Positions 6,970 to 11,592 of a stretch of 64,000 nt of DNA are shown one piece after another. Numbering within the stretch: position 1 is the first letter of the stretch; every line of letters starts with the position of its first letter. Position numbers and translations under genes: made by a program. The notes beneath the pieces were generated by a model that worked only from the letters and a program-made list of their open reading frames with translations, was not told where the DNA came from and ran no database searches. Origin of the DNA: Escherichia phage vB_EcoM_Maryam; the sequence record PQ799574.1; one strand, written 5' to 3'.

Positions 6970-7257
6970 ATGATTCTTTATGCTAAAGTATCATCCATTG
7001 AAAATGGATATAAATATGATCAAGAAGCAGCTAAAGCCTTGATTGATGATTATGGCATTTTAACATGTTTTGAAGTTGAAAAGGTTTATGTTGACCGTTC
7101 ATCTTCTCAAGTTAAATTAGTGAAGGAAGACCGTAAATTTAATACAGTAAATTTTGATTTCTTTATTGAAACAGAAAAAGGTCCTCTTGGATATGATATT
7201 TTCAAGAATCCTTTGGGTCTTGAATGCATCGTAAATATGTATTATCATAAATGGTAA
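6970..7257 (+). CDS. hypothetical protein
   Basis: 95 aa from ATG 6970 (track start 6964 is TTG). Confidence 0.5.
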   Translation: MILYAKVSSIENGYKYDQEAAKALIDDYGILTCFEVEKVYVDRSSSQVKLVKEDRKFNTVNFDFFIETEKGPLGYDIFKNPLGLECIVNMYYHKW

Positions 7258-7354
7258 ATATGCTTTAAGAATTATTTGTTATTATTAACTCATACCGCAC
7301 TGATTAATACCCTCTATCATCAAGGGCTCTTGCTAAAGAGCCTTTGTTAATAAT

Positions 7355-7427
7355 TGGGAATTAGCCAAGTTGGTAAGGCACTGGATTTTGATTCCAGGAT
7401 GCAAAGGTTCAAGTCCTTTATTCCCAG
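7355..7427 (+). tRNA. tRNA-Gln (anticodon UUG)
   Basis: cloverleaf folded by hand: 7-bp acceptor tgggaat/attccca, anticodon loop ttTTGat, T-loop ttcaagt. Confidence 0.85.
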
Positions 7428-7428
7428 C

Positions 7429-7512
7429 GCGAGAATGGTCAAATTGGTAAAGGCACAGCACTTAAAATGCTGCGGAATGATTTCCTTGTGGGTTCGAGTC
7501 CCACTTCTCGCA
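7429..7512 (+). tRNA. tRNA-Leu (anticodon UAA)
   Basis: acceptor gcgagaa/ttctcgc, anticodon loop ctTAAaa, long variable arm, encoded CCA. Confidence 0.85.
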
Positions 7513-7520
7513 CCAAATTT

Positions 7521-7594
<74 letters not shown>

Positions 7595-7604
7595 ATTTAA
7601 TTTA

Positions 7605-7678
7605 CTCCGTGTAGCTCAGTTTGGTAGAGCGCCTGATTTGGGATCAGGAGGTCCAAGGTTCAAATCCTTGTATGGAGA
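7605..7678 (+). tRNA. tRNA-Pro (anticodon UGG)
   Basis: D-arm agctcagtttggtagagc, anticodon loop ttTGGga, T-loop ttcaaat. Confidence 0.8.
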
Positions 7679-7680
7679 CT

Positions 7681-7767
7681 GGAGGTGTGGCAGAGTGGTT
7701 GAATGCACCGGTCTTGAAAACCGGCAGTCGCTCCGGCGACTCATAGGTTCAAATCCTATCGCCTCCG
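7681..7767 (+). tRNA. tRNA-Ser (anticodon UGA)
   Basis: acceptor ggaggtg/cgcctcc, anticodon loop ctTGAaa, long variable arm, T-loop ttcaaat. Confidence 0.8.
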
Positions 7768-7774
7768 TAATTTC

Positions 7775-7847
7775 GCTGATTTAGCTCAGTAGGTAGAGCA
7801 CCTCACTTGTAATGAGGACGTCGGCGGTTCGATTCCGTCAATCAGCA
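7775..7847 (+). tRNA. tRNA-Thr (anticodon UGU)
   Basis: acceptor gctgatt/aatcagc, anticodon loop ctTGTaa, T-loop ttcgatt, CCA follows. Confidence 0.85.
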
Positions 7848-7851
7848 CCAA

Positions 7852-7925
7852 GGCCCTGTAGCTCAATGGTTAGCAGCAGTCCCCTCATAAGGGAAAGGTT
7901 ACCAGTTCAAATCTGGTCTGGGTCA
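7852..7925 (+). tRNA. tRNA with anticodon CAU (Ile-2 by position in T-even cluster, or Met)
   Basis: anticodon loop ctCATaa, T-arm accag-ttcaaat-ctggt, CCA follows; D-stem and top anticodon-stem pair imperfect. Confidence 0.6.
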
Positions 7926-7937
7926 CCAAATTAATTA

Positions 7938-8021
7938 GGGGAGTTATCCCGTAGAGGTAGCGGTGTGGACTGTAAATCCATTGTCATTGCGACTCGGGTG
8001 GTTCGACTCCATCACTCCCCA
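7938..8021 (+). tRNA. tRNA-Tyr-like (anticodon GUA, long variable arm); possibly pseudo-tRNA
   Basis: acceptor ggggagt/actcccc perfect, anticodon loop ctGTAaa, variable arm resembles bacterial tRNA-Tyr, T-loop ttcgact, CCA follows; D-arm pairs poorly. Confidence 0.5.
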
Positions 8022-8070
8022 CCAATTTATGACTCGTCGTGAGACGCTCAGTTCTTTATTAGGGACTGAT

Positions 8071-8736
8071 ATGCATTTTTATCTTTATAAAATAACAAAT
8101 AAAATTAATAATAAAATTTATATTGGTGTGCATTCTACCGAAAATTTAGATGATGGATATATGGGTTCTGGTAAATTATTAAAAAGAGCCCAAGACAAGT
8201 ATGGTATAGAAAATTTTTCTAAAGAAATATTAGAGTATTTTGATGATAAAGAATCTATGCTTGAAGCCGAGAAAAATATTGTCACAGAAGAGTTTTTAAA
8301 TAGACCAGATGTGTATAATTTAAAACTTGGCGGTGAAGGTGGATGGGACCATATAAATATTCCTGGGATGCTAAACCAGAAGAAAGATGCTAGCTTAAAA
8401 GGAGCTAAATCGTTTAAATCGCGTTTTGAAAATGATATTTTACTTCAAGAAAAATATCGTAAAATTGGTTCAAATGTATTTAAACGTTTGTGGTCAACTC
8501 CTGAATACAAGGAAAAATTTTTAAATAATAGCAGATTTTTAAATAAGCATCATACTCCTGAAACTATTAATAAAATGAAAGAAATTCATGTTAAAAATAA
8601 TCATCAGAAAGGAGAAAAGAATTCCCAATTTGGTATGATGTGGATTCATTCATTAGATGAAAAAGTTTCTAAACGTATTAAGAAAACTGACCCAATTCCA
8701 GAAGGATGGTTTAAAGGTCGAAAAATGAAATTTTAA
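8071..8736 (+). CDS. segB: GIY-YIG homing endonuclease (SegB-like)
   Basis: 221 aa from ATG 8071; YLYKITN...KIYIG motif; embedded in tRNA cluster like T4 segB; upstream ORF extension to 7963 overlaps a tRNA. Confidence 0.75.
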   Translation: MHFYLYKITNKINNKIYIGVHSTENLDDGYMGSGKLLKRAQDKYGIENFSKEILEYFDDKESMLEAEKNIVTEEFLNRPDVYNLKLGGEGGWDHINIPGMLNQKKDASLKGAKSFKSRFENDILLQEKYRKIGSNVFKRLWSTPEYKEKFLNNSRFLNKHHTPETINKMKEIHVKNNHQKGEKNSQFGMMWIHSLDEKVSKRIKKTDPIPEGWFKGRKMKF

Positions 8737-8739
8737 TTA

Positions 8740-8812
8740 CGGGGCATAGCTCAGAAGGAAGAGCAAGGACCTTCTAAGTCCTGGGTCGTAGGTTCGATCC
8801 CTACTGCCTCGA
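8740..8812 (+). tRNA. tRNA-Arg (anticodon UCU)
   Basis: acceptor cggggca/tgcctcg, anticodon stem aggac/gtcct with loop ctTCTaa, T-loop ttcgatc, CCA follows. Confidence 0.85.
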
Positions 8813-8833
8813 CCAATTATAAGTGAGGAAAAT

Positions 8834-9184
8834 ATGAAAGGTAATGTTTATTTAGTAGTTCATGATTTAACATTCTATTTTAATCATAATGATACTGTTA
8901 TTTCTGAACGTGTAATTAATTTGCTTTATCAGCATGCAGATTATGTTTATGTCGAAAACGAATTTGGTCATTGGCAATTTCTCAAAAATCGTTCATTTGG
9001 TTTAGATGGTTACGAATATTTTGAACGTAAAGACCTTTTAGATAAAATTCCGTTATCTACACAATATCAAAATCATAAGTCTTTACATAAATGTCGACTA
9101 ATTCGAAATGCTGAATCTGCTTATGAAGCAATTGATTTATGGCGTAAACGCCGTGAACAGATTGATGCTTTAAAAGAATATTAA
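8834..9184 (+). CDS. hypothetical protein
   Basis: 116 aa; ggaaaat RBS. Confidence 0.5.
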   Translation: MKGNVYLVVHDLTFYFNHNDTVISERVINLLYQHADYVYVENEFGHWQFLKNRSFGLDGYEYFERKDLLDKIPLSTQYQNHKSLHKCRLIRNAESAYEAIDLWRKRREQIDALKEY

Positions 9185-9493
9185 GAAGCCGGGTCGCTAC
9201 CGGTAAGTCGTCGGACTGATGTTCCCTGAGTAAGGAATTGCGTTAATAATCCTTGCGTTTATTGATGCCCTCTTACATCACAGCAGAAACGGCGCACCGA
9301 ATTATCGATTCGAGGAAATATCTTTGCCGTAAGCCGAGTAGCGTTTTTGACGGAACGTTCGGATATGGTCGAGATATGGCCTTTTAAAAATATTGAGTAG
9401 CGTCAACTGCTTGATAACCGGGTTCGAATCCCGGCGTTTCGTACAAACACTTGCCTTAGCAGGTGGAACCCCGACAAGGTTGCCGCAAGGCTT
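9185..9493 (+). ncRNA. candidate structured stable RNA region (T4 species 1/2 RNA-like, tRNA-like T-arm)
   Basis: about 300 bp with no ORF, locally GC-rich; GGGTTCGAATCCCGG T-arm-like motif at 9418-9432; sits just past tRNA-Arg where T4 encodes small stable RNAs. Confidence 0.4.
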
Positions 9494-9522
9494 AGCCCCG
9501 ACCGAAAGGTTGGGGCTTTTTG
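9494..9522 (+). terminator. rho-independent terminator (hairpin + T run)
   Basis: agcccc...ggggct stem followed by ttttt; first copy of a repeated module. Confidence 0.6.
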
Positions 9523-9523
9523 G

Positions 9524-9531
9524 TATAAATA
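9524..9531 (+). promoter_or_regulatory. late promoter TATAAATA
   Basis: exact TATAAATA about 40 nt upstream of the 9572 internal-protein-like gene. Confidence 0.6.
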
Positions 9532-9571
9532 TAGTAGTATATTAAATCCACGAATTAAAACAGGAAATAAG

Positions 9572-10045
9572 ATGAAATCATATACTCAATTTTTAAATGA
9601 AGCGGTGTTAAATGAAGCATCTAGCACCGAAATTCAAGCTGTCGCAAAAGCAGCCATTGCAGCGGGTAAATATTCTTACAAAGATGCTTCTGATGAATCG
9701 CGATTCCAGTTTGCACGCGACATGAAAGCGGAAGGATTTACGGGAAATGCAGTTAGTATGGCCTGGAAAAGTTTAGTTGCTACTGGCGCTGCTTTTGCAA
9801 AGGCTTCGGGTAAACCTGCTCCTAAAGCAGATCCTAAAGTCGCACAAGAGAAAAATATTGTTAAAGGAATTATCTCCAAATATGAAGCTATCCTTAAAGA
9901 GCTTTTAGTAATCAAAACTGAAGGCCAAAAACTAGCTCGTGCTTATAGTTTCAAAGATAACCCACATGCTCACTCTCTTGAGTATGTTGAAGACATCCAA
10001 AAAATTATTAAAGACCGCATTTGGTCTGCTAAACAAATCAAATAA
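9572..10045 (+). CDS. internal-protein-like head protein (CTS-like N-terminus MKSYTQFLNEA)
   Basis: 157 aa; N-terminus resembles capsid targeting sequence; own late promoter; basic/Ala-rich. Confidence 0.55.
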   Translation: MKSYTQFLNEAVLNEASSTEIQAVAKAAIAAGKYSYKDASDESRFQFARDMKAEGFTGNAVSMAWKSLVATGAAFAKASGKPAPKADPKVAQEKNIVKGIISKYEAILKELLVIKTEGQKLARAYSFKDNPHAHSLEYVEDIQKIIKDRIWSAKQIK

Positions 10046-10052
10046 CATTCTT

Positions 10053-10082
10053 AGCCCTAGCCGAAAGGTTGGGGCTTTTTGG
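10053..10082 (+). terminator. rho-independent terminator, second copy of the 9494 module
   Basis: shares ccgaaaggttggggctttttggtat with 9500-9525. Confidence 0.6.
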
Positions 10083-10213
10083 TATCTAGGCCTTTCCAGG
10101 CCTCTCTAGGCATCATTTAGTTTCTACCCTTTATAATATATTATCCTATCCTTTGATTTCCCCTCCCTGCCCTAGAATTCCCCAAAACTTTTTAAAAATT
10201 TTTTCACAAAACT

Positions 10214-10245
10214 GTTTACATCCCTGTTCTTCTATGGTACTATAC
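10214..10245 (+). promoter_or_regulatory. T4-type early promoter (GTTTAC ... TGGTACTATAC)
   Basis: -35 GTTTAC, 15-nt spacer, extended -10; A/T-rich upstream ttttcacaaaa. Confidence 0.7.
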
Positions 10246-10286
10246 AACTATCAACTACTGATACAGAAAACAACTTGGAGAATGAA

Positions 10287-10550
10287 ATGGATAATTACGG
10301 TGAACTGTTCAACTTTTTTATGAAATGTGTTTCAGAAGATTTTGGTCGTACAGTGAATGATATTAAAGTTATCGGTCCTGACCATCCGATGTTTGAAACT
10401 TACGCAGTAATGGGTAATGAAGATGGTCAGTGGTATACTGTAAAGGTTGTGATTAATATGTTCACAGCAGAAGGTTATGTTAAACTGTCTTCTAAAGTTT
10501 ACCATGATAACGATGAAATCGCAGAAGAATATTTCAATAATATGAAATAA
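10287..10550 (+). CDS. hypothetical protein
   Basis: 87 aa from ATG 10287 (track start 10275 is TTG); ggag RBS. Confidence 0.5.
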   Translation: MDNYGELFNFFMKCVSEDFGRTVNDIKVIGPDHPMFETYAVMGNEDGQWYTVKVVINMFTAEGYVKLSSKVYHDNDEIAEEYFNNMK

Positions 10551-10581
10551 GTTTACACAGGCTCATGATTGAGATATTATG
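10551..10581 (+). promoter_or_regulatory. early promoter-like (GTTTAC ... GATATTATG)
   Basis: sigma70-like hexamers at correct spacing. Confidence 0.5.
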
Positions 10582-10606
10582 AGTCTATAACTTTGAGGAG
10601 AACATT

Positions 10607-10942
10607 ATGAAACGTAACTTTAGTAAAGCTTTTTGTAATAGAAATTATTATCCTGAAGAGCTTTTTGAATCTAAGGAATTTAAAGAGTTTAACGAACGCT
10701 CTCAAAACATGCCTGTACAATGGGTGTTAGATTATGCCAAACGTATCTTTGAAGGCGTGCGGGATATTTGTCCTGATGATGAAGCTCCTTATTTTAAAAA
10801 GGCTTGGGAACTCGCCAACCAAGCATATATCAATGCTTTAGAATCTTCTAAAGGTACTGACGATGATTTTATTTTATTAGCTATCAATGATGCCGTTATC
10901 GAGGCCATCAACGTCTTTATCGACGAGCTAGACGAAGAATAA
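10607..10942 (+). CDS. hypothetical protein
   Basis: 111 aa; gaggag RBS. Confidence 0.5.
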   Translation: MKRNFSKAFCNRNYYPEELFESKEFKEFNERSQNMPVQWVLDYAKRIFEGVRDICPDDEAPYFKKAWELANQAYINALESSKGTDDDFILLAINDAVIEAINVFIDELDEE

Positions 10943-10943
10943 G

Positions 10944-10972
10944 TTTACAATCTATTAAAACGTGATATTATC
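10944..10972 (+). promoter_or_regulatory. early promoter-like (GTTTAC ... GTGATATTATC)
   Basis: sigma70-like hexamers at correct spacing. Confidence 0.5.
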
Positions 10973-10998
10973 TAATTGTATCAACCTAAGGAAATACT

Positions 10999-11592
10999 AT
11001 GAACACACTGAAGAAAATTGTTGAGTTTATTCGCACTAAACTTGGTTCTGCTATGGCTAAAAATTTATCTGTTGAAGAACAGTATACTGCTGCGGCAGCA
11101 AAACTACTTGATAAGATTAAAGATCTAAAAACTGCTTCTGTTAAATCTATTAATGAAGAAAAACGTATTCGTGAACTTATTGTCGAAAAGAATCGACAGG
11201 CCGAATCAAAAGAGCGTGAAATTCGCAAGCTTCTTTCCGAAGGTCAAGATGTAACAATGCATGCTAAACTTGGTTTACTATATCGTCGAACAGCTGAGCA
11301 GTTGACTACTAAAGCTGATGGTTATGCTGAAATGCGAATTGAAATCGCCAAGAAAGTAGTTGAGTTAGATGATGCTCGCCAAGAACTTGCAGTTAAATTG
11401 GAATATATCCGTGAAACTCGCGCCGCGAATGCCCTTGGAATTAGTACTGCTGATGATGTAGTTGAAATTGCAGCACTGACTAAGGTTGATATTGAAGATA
11501 CTCTTGCTCGAGTTGAAACCTTTAATGGTAATATTTCTGGGGTTGAAACTACCTCTGCCGATGTTCAGGAATATATTAATTCTCTGAAATAA
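10999..11592 (+). CDS. hypothetical coiled-coil protein
   Basis: 197 aa, heptad-rich. Confidence 0.5.

Follow-up and report, generated by a model that had tools for sequence, protein, structure and literature searches.

The ORF-free, structured stretch at positions 9185-9493 of the window (the whole 64,000-nt stretch of Escherichia phage vB_EcoM_Maryam DNA that was analysed, from record PQ799574.1) very probably consists of copies of the phage T4 RNAs rnaD and rnaC, followed by a 3′ trailer and the terminator of the tRNA operon, in the architecture described here. Judged by alignment, the two RNAs at 9181-9443 are a rediscovery, orthologues of the already known T4 RNAs so named, which were mapped in T4 decades ago. 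On the roughly 50-year-old question of rnaC and rnaD function, the comparison contributes a covariation-backed fold for rnaC, in which a tRNA-type minihelix is predicted to carry two further arms whose loops pair with each other. The elements of the locus are as follows.

8740-8815, + strand: tRNA-Arg(UCU), the last of the tRNA cluster (ARAGORN; Rfam tRNA, 63.9 bits; T4 annotation)
8834-9184, + strand: 116-aa ORF (phrog_3355) between tRNA-Arg and rnaD
9181-9298, + strand: rnaD homologue (T4 species 2 RNA), ends transferred from the T4 annotation by alignment
9305-9443, + strand: rnaC homologue (T4 species 1 RNA), placed by alignment to T4 rnaC
9444-9493, + strand: 3′ trailer with three small hairpins (9448-9465, 9467-9481 and 9482-9491)
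9494-9522, + strand: intrinsic terminator of the tRNA operon, found by a terminator scan

A GC-rich region without ORFs at the end of a tRNA operon

An earlier note on this DNA had claimed a GC-rich, ORF-free structured region, and its composition bears the claim out. The G+C content is 0.483 in 9200-9499 and 0.48 over 9185-9493 as a whole. The flanks are lower, at about 0.30-0.35, with 0.28-0.34 measured upstream (segB-like gene and ORF) and 0.33-0.41 downstream; the tRNA cluster, at 0.45-0.50, has the same level as 9200-9499. No ORF of at least 60 aa is present in 9185-9493. The only ones that overlap it are TTG-start ORFs of 44, 34 and 50 aa, and none of these is preserved as a frame, since T4, RB68 and the window differ by 1-nt indels within rnaD. 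Folding, which had been proposed as a check, yields an energy of −126.8 kcal/mol for 9181-9525 (z = −4.5), and this stability is equalled by 0 of 100 shuffles. The structured stretch is wider than 9185-9493, starting at 9181, over the ORF stop codon, and ending at 9522 with the terminator.

An Rfam scan of 7000-11000 at E ≤ 10 left 9181-9525 empty except for a 16-bit match to isrK on the wrong strand, and Rfam holds no family for rnaC or rnaD. The late-promoter motif TATAAATA, found on the + strand at 8352 and 9524, was discarded as a signal; it is not enriched in the 64-kb window.

On the upstream side, the TAA stop of the 116-aa ORF (9182-9184) overlaps the first bases of rnaD. This intervening ORF had been put forward as a departure from the arrangement in T4. 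The ORF is real and the arrangement is indeed unlike that of T4, but it is no peculiarity of this phage, being present as well in T2, RB68, RB69, HX01 and JN02 (and missing from T4, VR5 and ESCO47). Both ORFs that flank the region fall in PHROG families without a function, and searches for them gave no Pfam family and no significant sequence relative in the PDB. The region is preceded, at a distance of 0.6 kb, by a segB-like GIY-YIG gene.

Downstream of rnaC, the trailer folds with z = −3.5. Its first hairpin carries a compensatory change from G-C to A-U in JN02 and ESCO47, its third is absent from HX01 and JN02, and the trailer as such is retained after rnaD in phages that have no rnaC. The terminator hairpin (9494-9517) has a 10-bp stem, seven of whose pairs are G-C, and a GAAA loop; TTTTT comes after it, and T4 has the same element. 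Transcription of the T4 tRNA cluster yields a single primary transcript and stops downstream of the gene for species I RNA (PMC2330249).

Identity with the T4 RNAs

The proposal that a tRNA-like noncoding RNA occupies the place of T4 species 1 and 2 is borne out by a base-for-base alignment with rnaC and rnaD of T4 (NC_000866, features T4s001 and T4s002; rnaC 139 nt, rnaD 119 nt). For rnaD, 114 of 118 positions are identical and there is one indel; for rnaC, the alignment is ungapped with 136 of 139 identical, and pairing is preserved by all three substitutions. A covariance model built from rnaC and its relatives gives 167.7 bits for the window, which has a single copy, and 169.8 bits for T4. 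As in T4, rnaD adjoins rnaC on its 5′ side with a spacer of 6 nt.

The likeness to T4 extends to the order of the two RNAs, their strand, their site between tRNA-Arg on one side and the terminator with e.8 on the other, and their predicted fold, and the synteny that runs from the tRNA cluster through rnaD, rnaC and the terminator to e.8 is shared. Both RNAs are also annotated at the corresponding place in the RB68, Aplg8, T4T and RB3 records. The differences are that tRNA-Arg and rnaD are separated by 1 nt in T4, whereas here the 116-aa ORF lies in between; that the 3′ end of rnaD reads CACCA in T4 and CACCG here; and that an extra ORF cassette past the terminator is missing in T4. In T4, RNAC has been detected as a stable transcript by Northern blot (PMC9697503).

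Predicted fold of rnaC

We compared about 25 distinct sequences from phages, and both RNAalifold and pair counts give rnaC as a cloverleaf-like four-way junction in which an acceptor-like stem and a T arm are combined with a long arm and a 10-bp hairpin, with the following elements.

9306-9312, + strand: 5′ strand of the acceptor-like stem, CGAUUCG, paired with CGUUUCG at 9435-9441
9313-9382, + strand: long arm, 70 nt of interrupted helices in the position of the tRNA D arm
9347-9352, + strand: hexamer UUGACG at the apex of the long arm, matched by the hairpin 2 loop at 9401-9406
9391-9416, + strand: hairpin 2, with a 10-bp stem and the 6-nt loop CGUCAA (9401-9406)
9418-9434, + strand: T arm, with a 5-bp stem and the 7-nt loop UUCGAAU
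9435-9443, + strand: 3′ end, comprising the 3′ strand of the acceptor-like stem (9435-9441), U9442, unpaired and placed like a discriminator base, and A9443, where the annotation ends

As a single sequence, rnaC has a minimum free energy of −49.3 kcal/mol (z = −3.8). The consensus comprises 48 pairs that are 94.9% paired. Double changes occur in 21 of them, the opposite of the lack of conserved covariation that the earlier note had named as telling against a structured RNA; 0 of 500 shuffles reach this, and slid controls give 1-5 such pairs.

The acceptor-like stem is formed by 7 bp with two central U.U mismatches, which are conserved. Its third pair covaries between A-U and G-C (10 versus 12 sequences), and the mismatches are replaced by U-A and C-G in TG1-like phages, where the stem is entirely Watson-Crick. 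The annotated 5′ U of rnaC sits one base beyond this stem. The T-arm stem is 100% paired, with two covarying pairs (C-G/U-A and G-C/U-A), and the T loop is off consensus in the Entb_45-like clade, where it reads UGCAUGC. Helices 2-5 of the long arm are 97-100% paired and contain 10 covarying pairs; in the Klebsiella, Edwardsiella and Kosakonia clades most of the arm sequence has been replaced, and its length is constant within 1-3 nt. Eight of the 10 pairs in the stem of hairpin 2 covary.

On this comparative evidence, the acceptor-like stem and the canonical T arm are predicted to make up a tRNA-type minihelix. The rnaC model matches true tRNAs weakly and over their full length, at 14-20 bits, and therefore the acceptor/T-arm frame is taken to be common to both. 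Decoding by rnaC is precluded because the 70-nt long arm and the 10-bp hairpin stand in for the D and anticodon arms. A CCA is not encoded at the end of rnaC in most clades, the sequence being U-ACA-A here and U-UCA-A in TG1; only Marfa-like phages have U-CCA-A. The annotated 3′ end of T4 rnaC (..GUA) would carry no CCA.

Two other structural proposals were rejected. An alternative acceptor pairing of ACGGAAC (9350-9356) with GUUUCGU (9437-9443), the equivalent of which is used by ARAGORN in calling a 95-nt ‘tRNA-Met’ in SonariX, was dismissed because the TG1 and KLB31 sequences lend support to the terminal stem and none to this pairing. A K-turn or loop-E motif at the base of the long arm, sought by eye, lacked a convincing consensus.

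Given its resemblance to tRNA, rnaC might be viewed, together with rnaD, as a set of decayed pseudo-tRNAs left by reshuffling of the cluster, which are transcribed and processed by virtue of that resemblance and have no selection of their own. The tRNA cluster is visibly reshuffled among phages, rnaC keeps an acceptor stem and T arm, real tRNAs are matched weakly by the rnaC model, and the ARAGORN call lies inside the SonariX copy. We nevertheless regard this explanation as very improbable. The near-identity of rnaC with its T4 counterpart speaks against it, as do the 21 compensatory pairs that hold the fold across genera whose long arms have been replaced, the location of the strongest visible constraint in parts that are not tRNA-like (the long arm, hairpin 2 and the two loop hexamers discussed below), and a core of rnaD that is invariant in 24 distinct sequences. 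A tRNA may well have been the ancestor of rnaC, but the data are at odds with neutral decay.

The T-arm-like motif that had been pointed out in the region, GGGTTCGAATCCCGG, is located at 9420-9434; it is part of rnaC alone, and rnaD has no T arm. Allowing at most one mismatch, GGTTCGAATCC occurs six times in the 64-kb window, always on the + strand (shuffles give 0.63), with five copies in the tRNA cluster and one in rnaC, the latter being the sole perfect copy. The 27-bp site of SegB has a conserved 11-bp core that corresponds to the tRNA T-stem-loop motif (PMC2330249). With a segB-like gene nearby, the conservation could be that of a DNA-level element, either a target or immunity site of a SegB-type homing endonuclease or a recombination hotspot, and not that of an RNA. 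Of all the explanations considered we find this the hardest to credit. Compensatory changes are found on both sides of the helices, the T stem included, which shows that RNA pairing, not a particular DNA sequence, is under selection; moreover, such an element would account for no more than 11-27 of the 340 bp.

Pairing between two loops of rnaC

The apical hexamer of the long arm, UUGACG, and the loop of hairpin 2, CGUCAA, are exact reverse complements, and such a match is found in 26 of 26 distinct sequences. In all 26 the complementary hexamer lies 33-34 nt into the long arm, even where the sequence of the arm has been replaced. Across 22 distinct sequences, all six loop-loop pairs can form without exception (100%), versus 16-51% in slid controls. 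Compensatory support comes from two events only, which are independent double changes: A-U to G-C in the Marfa clade (loop CGCCAA with apex UUGGCG) and C-G to U-A in the TG1 clade (loop CAUCAA with apex UUGAUG).

These data argue that the two hexamers form a 6-bp kissing pairing within the rnaC family, as far as comparative analysis can establish it. The predicted contact would either lock rnaC in a closed shape or join molecules head to tail. It is a specific feature, open to designed disruption and restoration. A literature search revealed no earlier structural study of the loop-loop pairing, the primary papers of the 1970s-80s being outside its reach.

Predicted fold of rnaD

The consensus fold of rnaD comprises 23 pairs that are 97.5% paired, with double changes in five pairs, and has two hairpins.

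9188-9204, + strand: P1 hairpin, with the 5-bp stem RCCGG/CCGGY and the invariant 7-nt loop GUCGCUA
9227-9287, + strand: central hairpin arm, whose base covaries (alignment pairs 63-115, 64-114 and 65-113)

Alone, rnaD is no more stable in folding than its shuffles (z = −1.3). The closing pair of P1 covaries among A-U, G-C and G-U in the 24 distinct sequences. The main long-range stem does not vary, and covariation is therefore no test of it. The distal part of the central hairpin exists in at least four sequence versions (the types of T4 and the window, of RB68 and RB69, of T2 and of VR25), and the invariant core amounts to 70 nt. We conclude from the alignment that rnaD most plausibly adopts a fold unrelated to that of rnaC, with a 5′ hairpin, a long-range stem and an invariant core arranged round a swappable central hairpin. 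The split between invariant core and dispensable hairpin is clear.

Because the CACCA end of T4 rnaD resembles a discriminator base plus CCA, rnaD was also considered as a tRNA-like RNA. This was rejected because the end varies (CAAAG, CATTG and CACAG also occur), no T arm adjoins it, and the P1 loop does not have the T-loop consensus. An internal loop of rnaD was inspected by eye for a K-turn or loop-E motif and gave no convincing consensus. In the minimum free energy structure of the precursor, a strand of P1 pairs with a strand of the rnaC T stem; we judge this an artefact arising from the likeness of two CCGG-rich hairpins, given that local covariation is seen for each on its own.

Distribution of rnaC and rnaD among phages

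The 116-aa ORF and both RNAs are jointly covered to at least 80% in 412 of 764 matching phage records. In VR5 and ESCO47, rnaD is fused straight to the trailer and rnaC is absent. Conversely, rnaC occurs with no detectable rnaD in Entb_45, SonariX, TG1, KLB31, Ursula and COW86c, where its neighbours are tRNA genes or CDSs and where it lies mid-cluster in some cases: between tRNA-Trp and tRNA-Gly in SonariX and COW86c, and between a CDS and tRNA-Trp in TG1. A metagenome scan recovered 12 loci, every one from known clades. A relaxed pattern applied to IMG/VR gave 12 further loci; all were negative with the covariance model and are therefore chance matches, as is L011 of the first scan. Since each is found without the other in some phages, the two RNAs appear, by their genomic occurrence, to be independent cassettes in phage tRNA clusters, gained and lost independently across enterobacterial Tevenvirinae.

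These arrangements bear on the explanation that the RNAs are only cis-acting processing or stability modules of the tRNA operon, the stable species being by-products that have no role in trans. Structured 3′ blocks of this kind would serve as entry sites for RNase P or endonucleases and shield the upstream tRNAs and ORF mRNA from 3′ exonucleases. Consistent with this, the RNAs lie at the 3′ end of the operon, just ahead of the trailer hairpins and terminator; the T4 cluster gives one primary transcript that ends there (PMC2330249); rnaD begins at the ORF stop codon in this phage, as a 3′ UTR would; and a trailer hairpin covaries too. Against it, rnaC is not bound to the operon end in SonariX, COW86c and TG1, VR5 and ESCO47 keep the trailer without rnaC, and the covariation of the kissing loops, the tandem U.U mismatches, the fixed arm lengths and the 70-nt core of rnaD exceed what protective hairpins need. 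We consider a purely cis-acting role rather unlikely.

Processing and possible functions

By analogy with established knowledge of T4, both RNAs would be excised from the polycistronic transcript of the tRNA operon. The 5′ end of T4 rnaC is made by RNase P, as known from the literature of the 1970s-80s, and the same enzyme would be expected to act on the acceptor/T-arm minihelix of the present copy. The 3′ ends would arise by endonuclease cuts in the trailer and subsequent exonuclease trimming to the stems.

Reviews and recent papers term both RNAs ‘of unknown function’, a 2010 review lists no T4 trans-acting sRNA as functionally characterised, and our literature searches on species 1 RNA, p2Sp1 and rnaC retrieved no functional or structural study. 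We tentatively lean towards action in trans, with rnaC as a non-decoding tRNA mimic and rnaD working through its invariant single-stranded core, which might bind protein or RNA. In such a scheme, rnaC would tie up or draw away a protein, of the host or the phage, that recognizes the acceptor/T-arm face of tRNA, and would be a host-dependent accessory factor like the neighbouring phage tRNAs. It would be a poor decoy for anticodon nucleases because it lacks a 7-nt loop of the anticodon type. T4 deletions that remove the entire tRNA region grow on laboratory hosts.

The one SNP that is common to all three T4-like phage lines evolved on ECOR34 is located in rnaD (PMC12685909). This shared change suggests a host-dependent role, although standing variation in the starting stock could also explain it. 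From the coordinates given, we infer that the SNP lies in or near the variable hairpin of rnaD and not in its invariant core (PMC12685909).

Alternatively, one or both RNAs might be sRNAs that base-pair with host or phage mRNAs through conserved single-stranded stretches, for which the rnaD loop GUCGCUA, the rnaD junctions GACUGA and GAAA and the rnaC linker UUUAAAAA are candidates. An invariant core with unpaired segments next to a replaceable hairpin, as in rnaD, is the pattern of seed-bearing sRNAs, and both rnaC and rnaD accumulate late in T4 infection (PMC9697503); the SNP in rnaD is a candidate adaptive change. On the other side, blastn of rnaD and rnaC against 5,426 E. coli genomes, a search blind to seeds of 7-10 nt, gave no match at E ≤ 1, the 2010 review records no characterised precedent in T4, the conserved rnaC loops are taken up in pairing with one another, and the probable site of the SNP is outside the rnaD core. 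We rate this explanation as unlikely.

Returning to the tRNA-mimic scheme, its most specific form is a speculative one that we hold possible though doubtful. In this form rnaC would represent an undescribed structural type, a tRNA mimic in which two non-tRNA arms kiss through the covarying 6-bp pairing to give a closed, ring-like monomer or a self-assembling dimer or multimer of the phi29 pRNA kind. It would be this architecture that enables rnaC to act as a host-specific accessory factor, for example by capturing a host acceptor/T-arm binder, while rnaD would have an effector role of its own through an invariant core that binds protein or RNA. The predicted folds and the convergent rnaD SNP reported from adaptation to a semi-permissive E. 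coli define concrete mutants and host panels with which function can be addressed. The comparison also exposes an annotation problem, as most of more than 800 related phage records either omit rnaC and rnaD or carry spurious ‘hypothetical proteins’ or ‘tRNA-Met’ across them.

Comparison with known RNA classes

With canonical tRNA (RF00005), rnaC shares an acceptor-type stem of 7 bp that runs on into a T stem of 5 bp, the loop UUCGAAU of 7 nt, a single unpaired base where tRNA has its discriminator, a junction at which four helices meet, and a location in a tRNA operon. It differs from tRNA in having no D arm and no 7-nt anticodon loop, in a variable region of 1 nt, in the two conserved U.U mismatches of the acceptor stem and in its unencoded CCA. 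In 9181-9525 ARAGORN made no tRNA call and Rfam gave no tRNA match at E ≤ 10; for tmRNA, ARAGORN found none in the window and Rfam gave no match. No YrlA RNA (RF02553) was detected in 9181-9525 either, the sole weak match (25.8 bits; gathering threshold 69) falling on the tRNAs at 7541-7657.

Several RNAs are known that mimic tRNA without decoding and are processed by tRNA enzymes, namely the tRNA-like domain of tmRNA, YrlA, the TMER units of gammaherpesvirus 68 and mascRNA. What rnaC has in common with them is an acceptor/T-arm module set on a body unlike tRNA, a 5′ end that RNase P would be expected to generate, and the lack of a decoding function. YrlA carries its tRNA-like module internally, whereas in rnaC the acceptor stem is formed from the termini of the RNA.

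The second comparison concerns kissing complexes in which 6-7 nt are fully paired, such as HIV TAR/TAR*, ColE1 RNA I/RNA II and the intermolecular rings of phi29 pRNA; T4 DNA packaging is not known to require an RNA. As in these complexes, the loops of rnaC are wholly Watson-Crick complementary, over 6 nt, and they covary. The difference is that both rnaC loops reside in one 139-nt molecule.

Identity and arrangement of the region

The block at 9185-9493, which the earlier note had described as ORF-free, locally G+C-rich and structured with a tRNA-like T arm, has been known before: it holds the species 1 and 2 RNAs of T4, and its gene order is a common one. The T4 reference record places rnaD ('species 2 RNA', 119 nt) one base past tRNA-Arg and rnaC ('species 1 RNA', 139 nt) six bases beyond rnaD, and both features align with the window without rearrangement. 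The relevant features are as follows.

7355-8815: tRNA cluster of nine genes, upstream of the rnaD/rnaC region
8071-8736: segB-like GIY-YIG homing-endonuclease gene, splitting the cluster between tRNA-Tyr and tRNA-Arg
8834-9184, + strand: 116-aa ORF (phrog_3355), between tRNA-Arg and rnaD
9181-9298, + strand: rnaD homologue, 114/118 identical to T4 rnaD with one 1-nt indel
9305-9443, + strand: rnaC homologue, 136/139 identical to T4 rnaC
9494-9517, then a U tract: operon terminator, downstream of rnaC and, like the trailer of small hairpins, the same as in T4

All three substitutions in rnaC relative to T4 turn a G-C or U.G pair into another allowed pair. In RB68 both ncRNAs are annotated at the homologous place, with the same ORF preceding.

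The features that had drawn attention to the region are real, and the earlier note interpreted them correctly in the main. The T-arm motif GGGTTCGAATCCCGG is present at 9420-9434, and the 64-kb window has six copies of GGTTCGAATCC with at most one mismatch (0.63 in shuffles), all on the + strand, five in the tRNA cluster and one at rnaC. The G+C fraction of 0.483 in 9200-9499 equals that of the tRNA cluster, compared with 0.28-0.34 in adjoining genes, and the 345-nt stretch 9181-9525 folds at z = -4.5. Overlapping ORFs are merely TTG-start frames of 34-50 aa, excluded as conserved reading frames by 1-base indels among T4, RB68 and the window. Only the extent needed adjustment, as the true limits, 9181 to 9522, lie slightly beyond both proposed ends. 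An Rfam scan of the region returned no family for rnaC or rnaD and was silent because Rfam holds none. Probably for the same reason, many records draw 'hypothetical protein' CDSs over these RNAs (e.g. HX01 D299_gp042, NM4.3 XRA41194), and both the annotation of the Enterobacter phage SonariX and ARAGORN make its rnaC homologue (1554-1648) a 95-nt tRNA-Met(CAT); these labels are probably annotation errors.

The phage is T4-like (Tequatrovirus). Positions 8816-9570 match 764 phage records, with 100% identity to Escherichia phage vB_EcoT_BCU-2 and 96-98% to RB51, RB68, Ac3 and many others. The vB_EcoT_BCU-2 record (PV290051.1, 46,924 bp), in which the match has the same coordinates as in the window, seems to represent only part of a T4-like phage genome of about 168 kb, since the 64-kb window exceeds its length. 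Within the tRNA cluster, the gene called by ARAGORN as tRNA-Met(CAT) (7852-7928) occupies the place of the annotated tRNA-Ile in T4, and is probably not a methionine tRNA but a tRNA-Ile2 of the lysidine-dependent type.

The earlier note also held that the arrangement differs from that of T4. The intervening ORF is real, its stop codon overlapping the first rnaD bases, and it is absent in T4, VR5 and ESCO47, where rnaD directly follows tRNA-Arg. However, this is a common variant and not a novelty, because T2, RB68, RB69, HX01 and JN02 have the ORF in the same position, and two ORFs of unknown function were already noted in the T2L tRNA region (PMC2330249). The ORF and RNAs together are at least 80% covered in 412 of the 764 matching records. 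The ORF product has no Pfam family and no significant PDB sequence relative.

rnaC is a four-way junction with a loop-loop pairing

Pattern scans of IMG/VR and metagenomes, together with blastn against phage records, gave about 25 distinct rnaC sequences, from Tequatro-, Mosig-, Dhaka-, Kanagawa-, Teguna- and Moonvirus phages and from Klebsiella (Marfa-like), Edwardsiella, Kosakonia, Citrobacter and Erwinia phages. A four-way junction of 48 pairs (94.9% paired) emerges both from RNAalifold and from explicit counts of pairs. The covariation sought for the region is present, with 21 of these pairs changed on both sides, a number reached by none of 500 shuffles, whereas slid controls gave 1-5. 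The elements of this fold are as follows.

9306-9312 with 9435-9441: acceptor-like stem, third pair alternating A-U / G-C
9313-9382: long arm, 70 nt
between long arm and hairpin: 8-nt U/A linker
9391-9416: 10-bp hairpin with 6-nt loop, covariation in 8/10 pairs
between hairpin and T arm: single unpaired base
9418-9434: T arm, two covarying pairs
U9442: unpaired, at the discriminator position

Of 22 sequences, 20 keep two central U.U mismatches in the acceptor-like stem; TG1-like phages have U-A and C-G there instead. The window rnaC is recognised neither by ARAGORN nor by the Rfam tRNA model. With an rnaC covariance model, the window shows a single copy, VR5 and ESCO47 show none, and true tRNAs score as weak full-length matches. 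Immediately 3′ of the acceptor stem (9442-9446; alignment columns 145-149) every clade carries U-N-C-A-A, read as ACA in the window, UCA in TG1 and CCA in Marfa-like Klebsiella phages. Its CAA, which never varies, falls outside the annotated mature RNA; it may direct processing or be a CCA that has degenerated.

UUGACG at the apex of the long arm (9347-9352) perfectly complements CGUCAA in the hairpin loop (9401-9406). The hexamers are UUGAUG and CAUCAA in TG1-like phages and UUGGCG and CGCCAA in the Marfa-like Klebsiella clade, so that compensation has occurred twice independently, at different positions. Each of the 22 distinct aligned sequences forms all six pairs (slid controls, 16-51% paired). 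In 26/26 distinct sequences the long arm carries the exact reverse complement of the hairpin loop at an offset of 33-34 nt, a position that is fixed even in clades with otherwise different long-arm sequence. As both hexamers are loops of helices that themselves covary, a kissing interaction is the simplest reading of these patterns. The pairing may link several molecules or close a single one, the latter only with sharp bends at the internal loops of the arm. That rnaC and rnaD are base-pairing sRNAs seems unlikely.

A 9-nt direct repeat, GAGUAGCGU, recurs within rnaC in the long arm (9334-9342) and the 10-bp hairpin (9395-9403). The GUAGCG core of this repeat is matched by the complementary CGCUAC of the invariant rnaD P1 loop (9193-9200); this is not counted as evidence of an rnaC-rnaD interaction, several phages having one RNA without the other.

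rnaD has an invariant core and a variable arm

Among 24 distinct rnaD sequences, a 5′ block of about 45 nt and a 3′ block of about 25 nt are invariant, and the central hairpin between them exists in at least four unrelated versions. The consensus fold is 97.5% paired, with double changes in 5/23 pairs: the 5′ hairpin has an invariant GUCGCUA loop and a covarying closing pair, the base of the central arm has three covarying pairs, and the 7-bp long-range stem does not vary. The rnaD sequence alone folds no better than shuffles (z = -1.3). Its final two or three bases are variable, and the CCA-like end of the T4 RNA is therefore probably a coincidence. The P1 hairpin (9188-9204, CCGG-GUCGCUA-CCGG) resembles the rnaC T arm (9418-9434, CCGGG-UUCGAAU-CCCGG), and the full-length MFE structure pairs the two regions; the likeness could hint at a common tRNA-derived origin or reflect chance between two CCGG-rich hairpins.

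Independent distribution and the flanking repeats

rnaC and rnaD enter and leave tRNA clusters like tRNA genes, and are independent cassettes because each is found without the other. In VR5 and ESCO47, rnaD is joined straight to the trailer (...GGCGCACCGAA|CACUUGCC...), with rnaC cleanly absent. Conversely, rnaD was undetected in the rnaC-bearing phages Entb_45, SonariX, TG1, KLB31, Ursula and COW86c, where rnaC lies between tRNA genes or CDSs, sometimes mid-cluster.

SegB recognises a site whose core is the tRNA T-stem-loop motif (PMC2330249). In the window, GGTTCGAATCC occurs without mismatch only in rnaC (9421-9431); the rnaC DNA may therefore be a SegB cleavage site. That such a DNA-level site accounts for the conservation of the RNAs is most improbable.

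A 36-nt direct repeat (92% identical) that includes the operon terminator occurs at 9491-9526 and 10050-10085, flanking an ORF of 157 aa (9572-10045, phrog_2280, unknown function); a late-promoter-like TATAAATA (9524-9531) directly follows the first copy. Because T4 has a single terminator copy and lacks the ORF, the latter has the look of a cassette with terminators at both ends, acquired or lost through recombination between the repeats.

Possible function of the two RNAs

Both RNAs are cut from the operon transcript (PMC2330249), and T4 RNAC is detectable and accumulates late (PMC9697503); both are still termed 'of unknown function' (PMC12685909, PMC9697503). Beyond establishing the identity of this locus, the rnaC fold and a probable rnaD fold, the kissing pairing, the modularity and the terminator, the present analysis adds the rnaC cloverleaf with covarying kissing loops, a variable arm set apart from an invariant core in rnaD, and the separate occurrence of the two RNAs among phages. 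These additions are of modest interest in that they open a long-standing question to experiment.

The 5′ end of species 1 RNA is made by RNase P. An acceptor/T-arm minihelix would suffice as a minimal RNase P substrate, which would explain why this part of rnaC is kept. It is conceivable, if rather doubtful, that both RNAs are purely cis-acting processing or stability modules; the remainder of rnaC is also constrained, and this speaks for more than a part in processing. On laboratory strains, T4 phages with a deleted tRNA region are viable. That the RNAs are neutral pseudo-tRNAs is very unlikely. Usefulness of rnaC might be conditional on the host, and rnaD would act separately, via its invariant core. 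When a T4-like phage was evolved on ECOR34, the sole SNP common to all three lines was in rnaD (PMC12685909), a hint of host dependence, although the SNP could also be standing variation. Placed from the published coordinates, it lies at about position 73 of rnaD, in or near the variable arm.

We tentatively propose rnaC as a non-decoding mimic of tRNA, which may act in trans on a protein recognising the acceptor/T-arm face of tRNA. The D and anticodon arms of tRNA are missing from rnaC, whereas the acceptor/T-arm minihelix is common to both.
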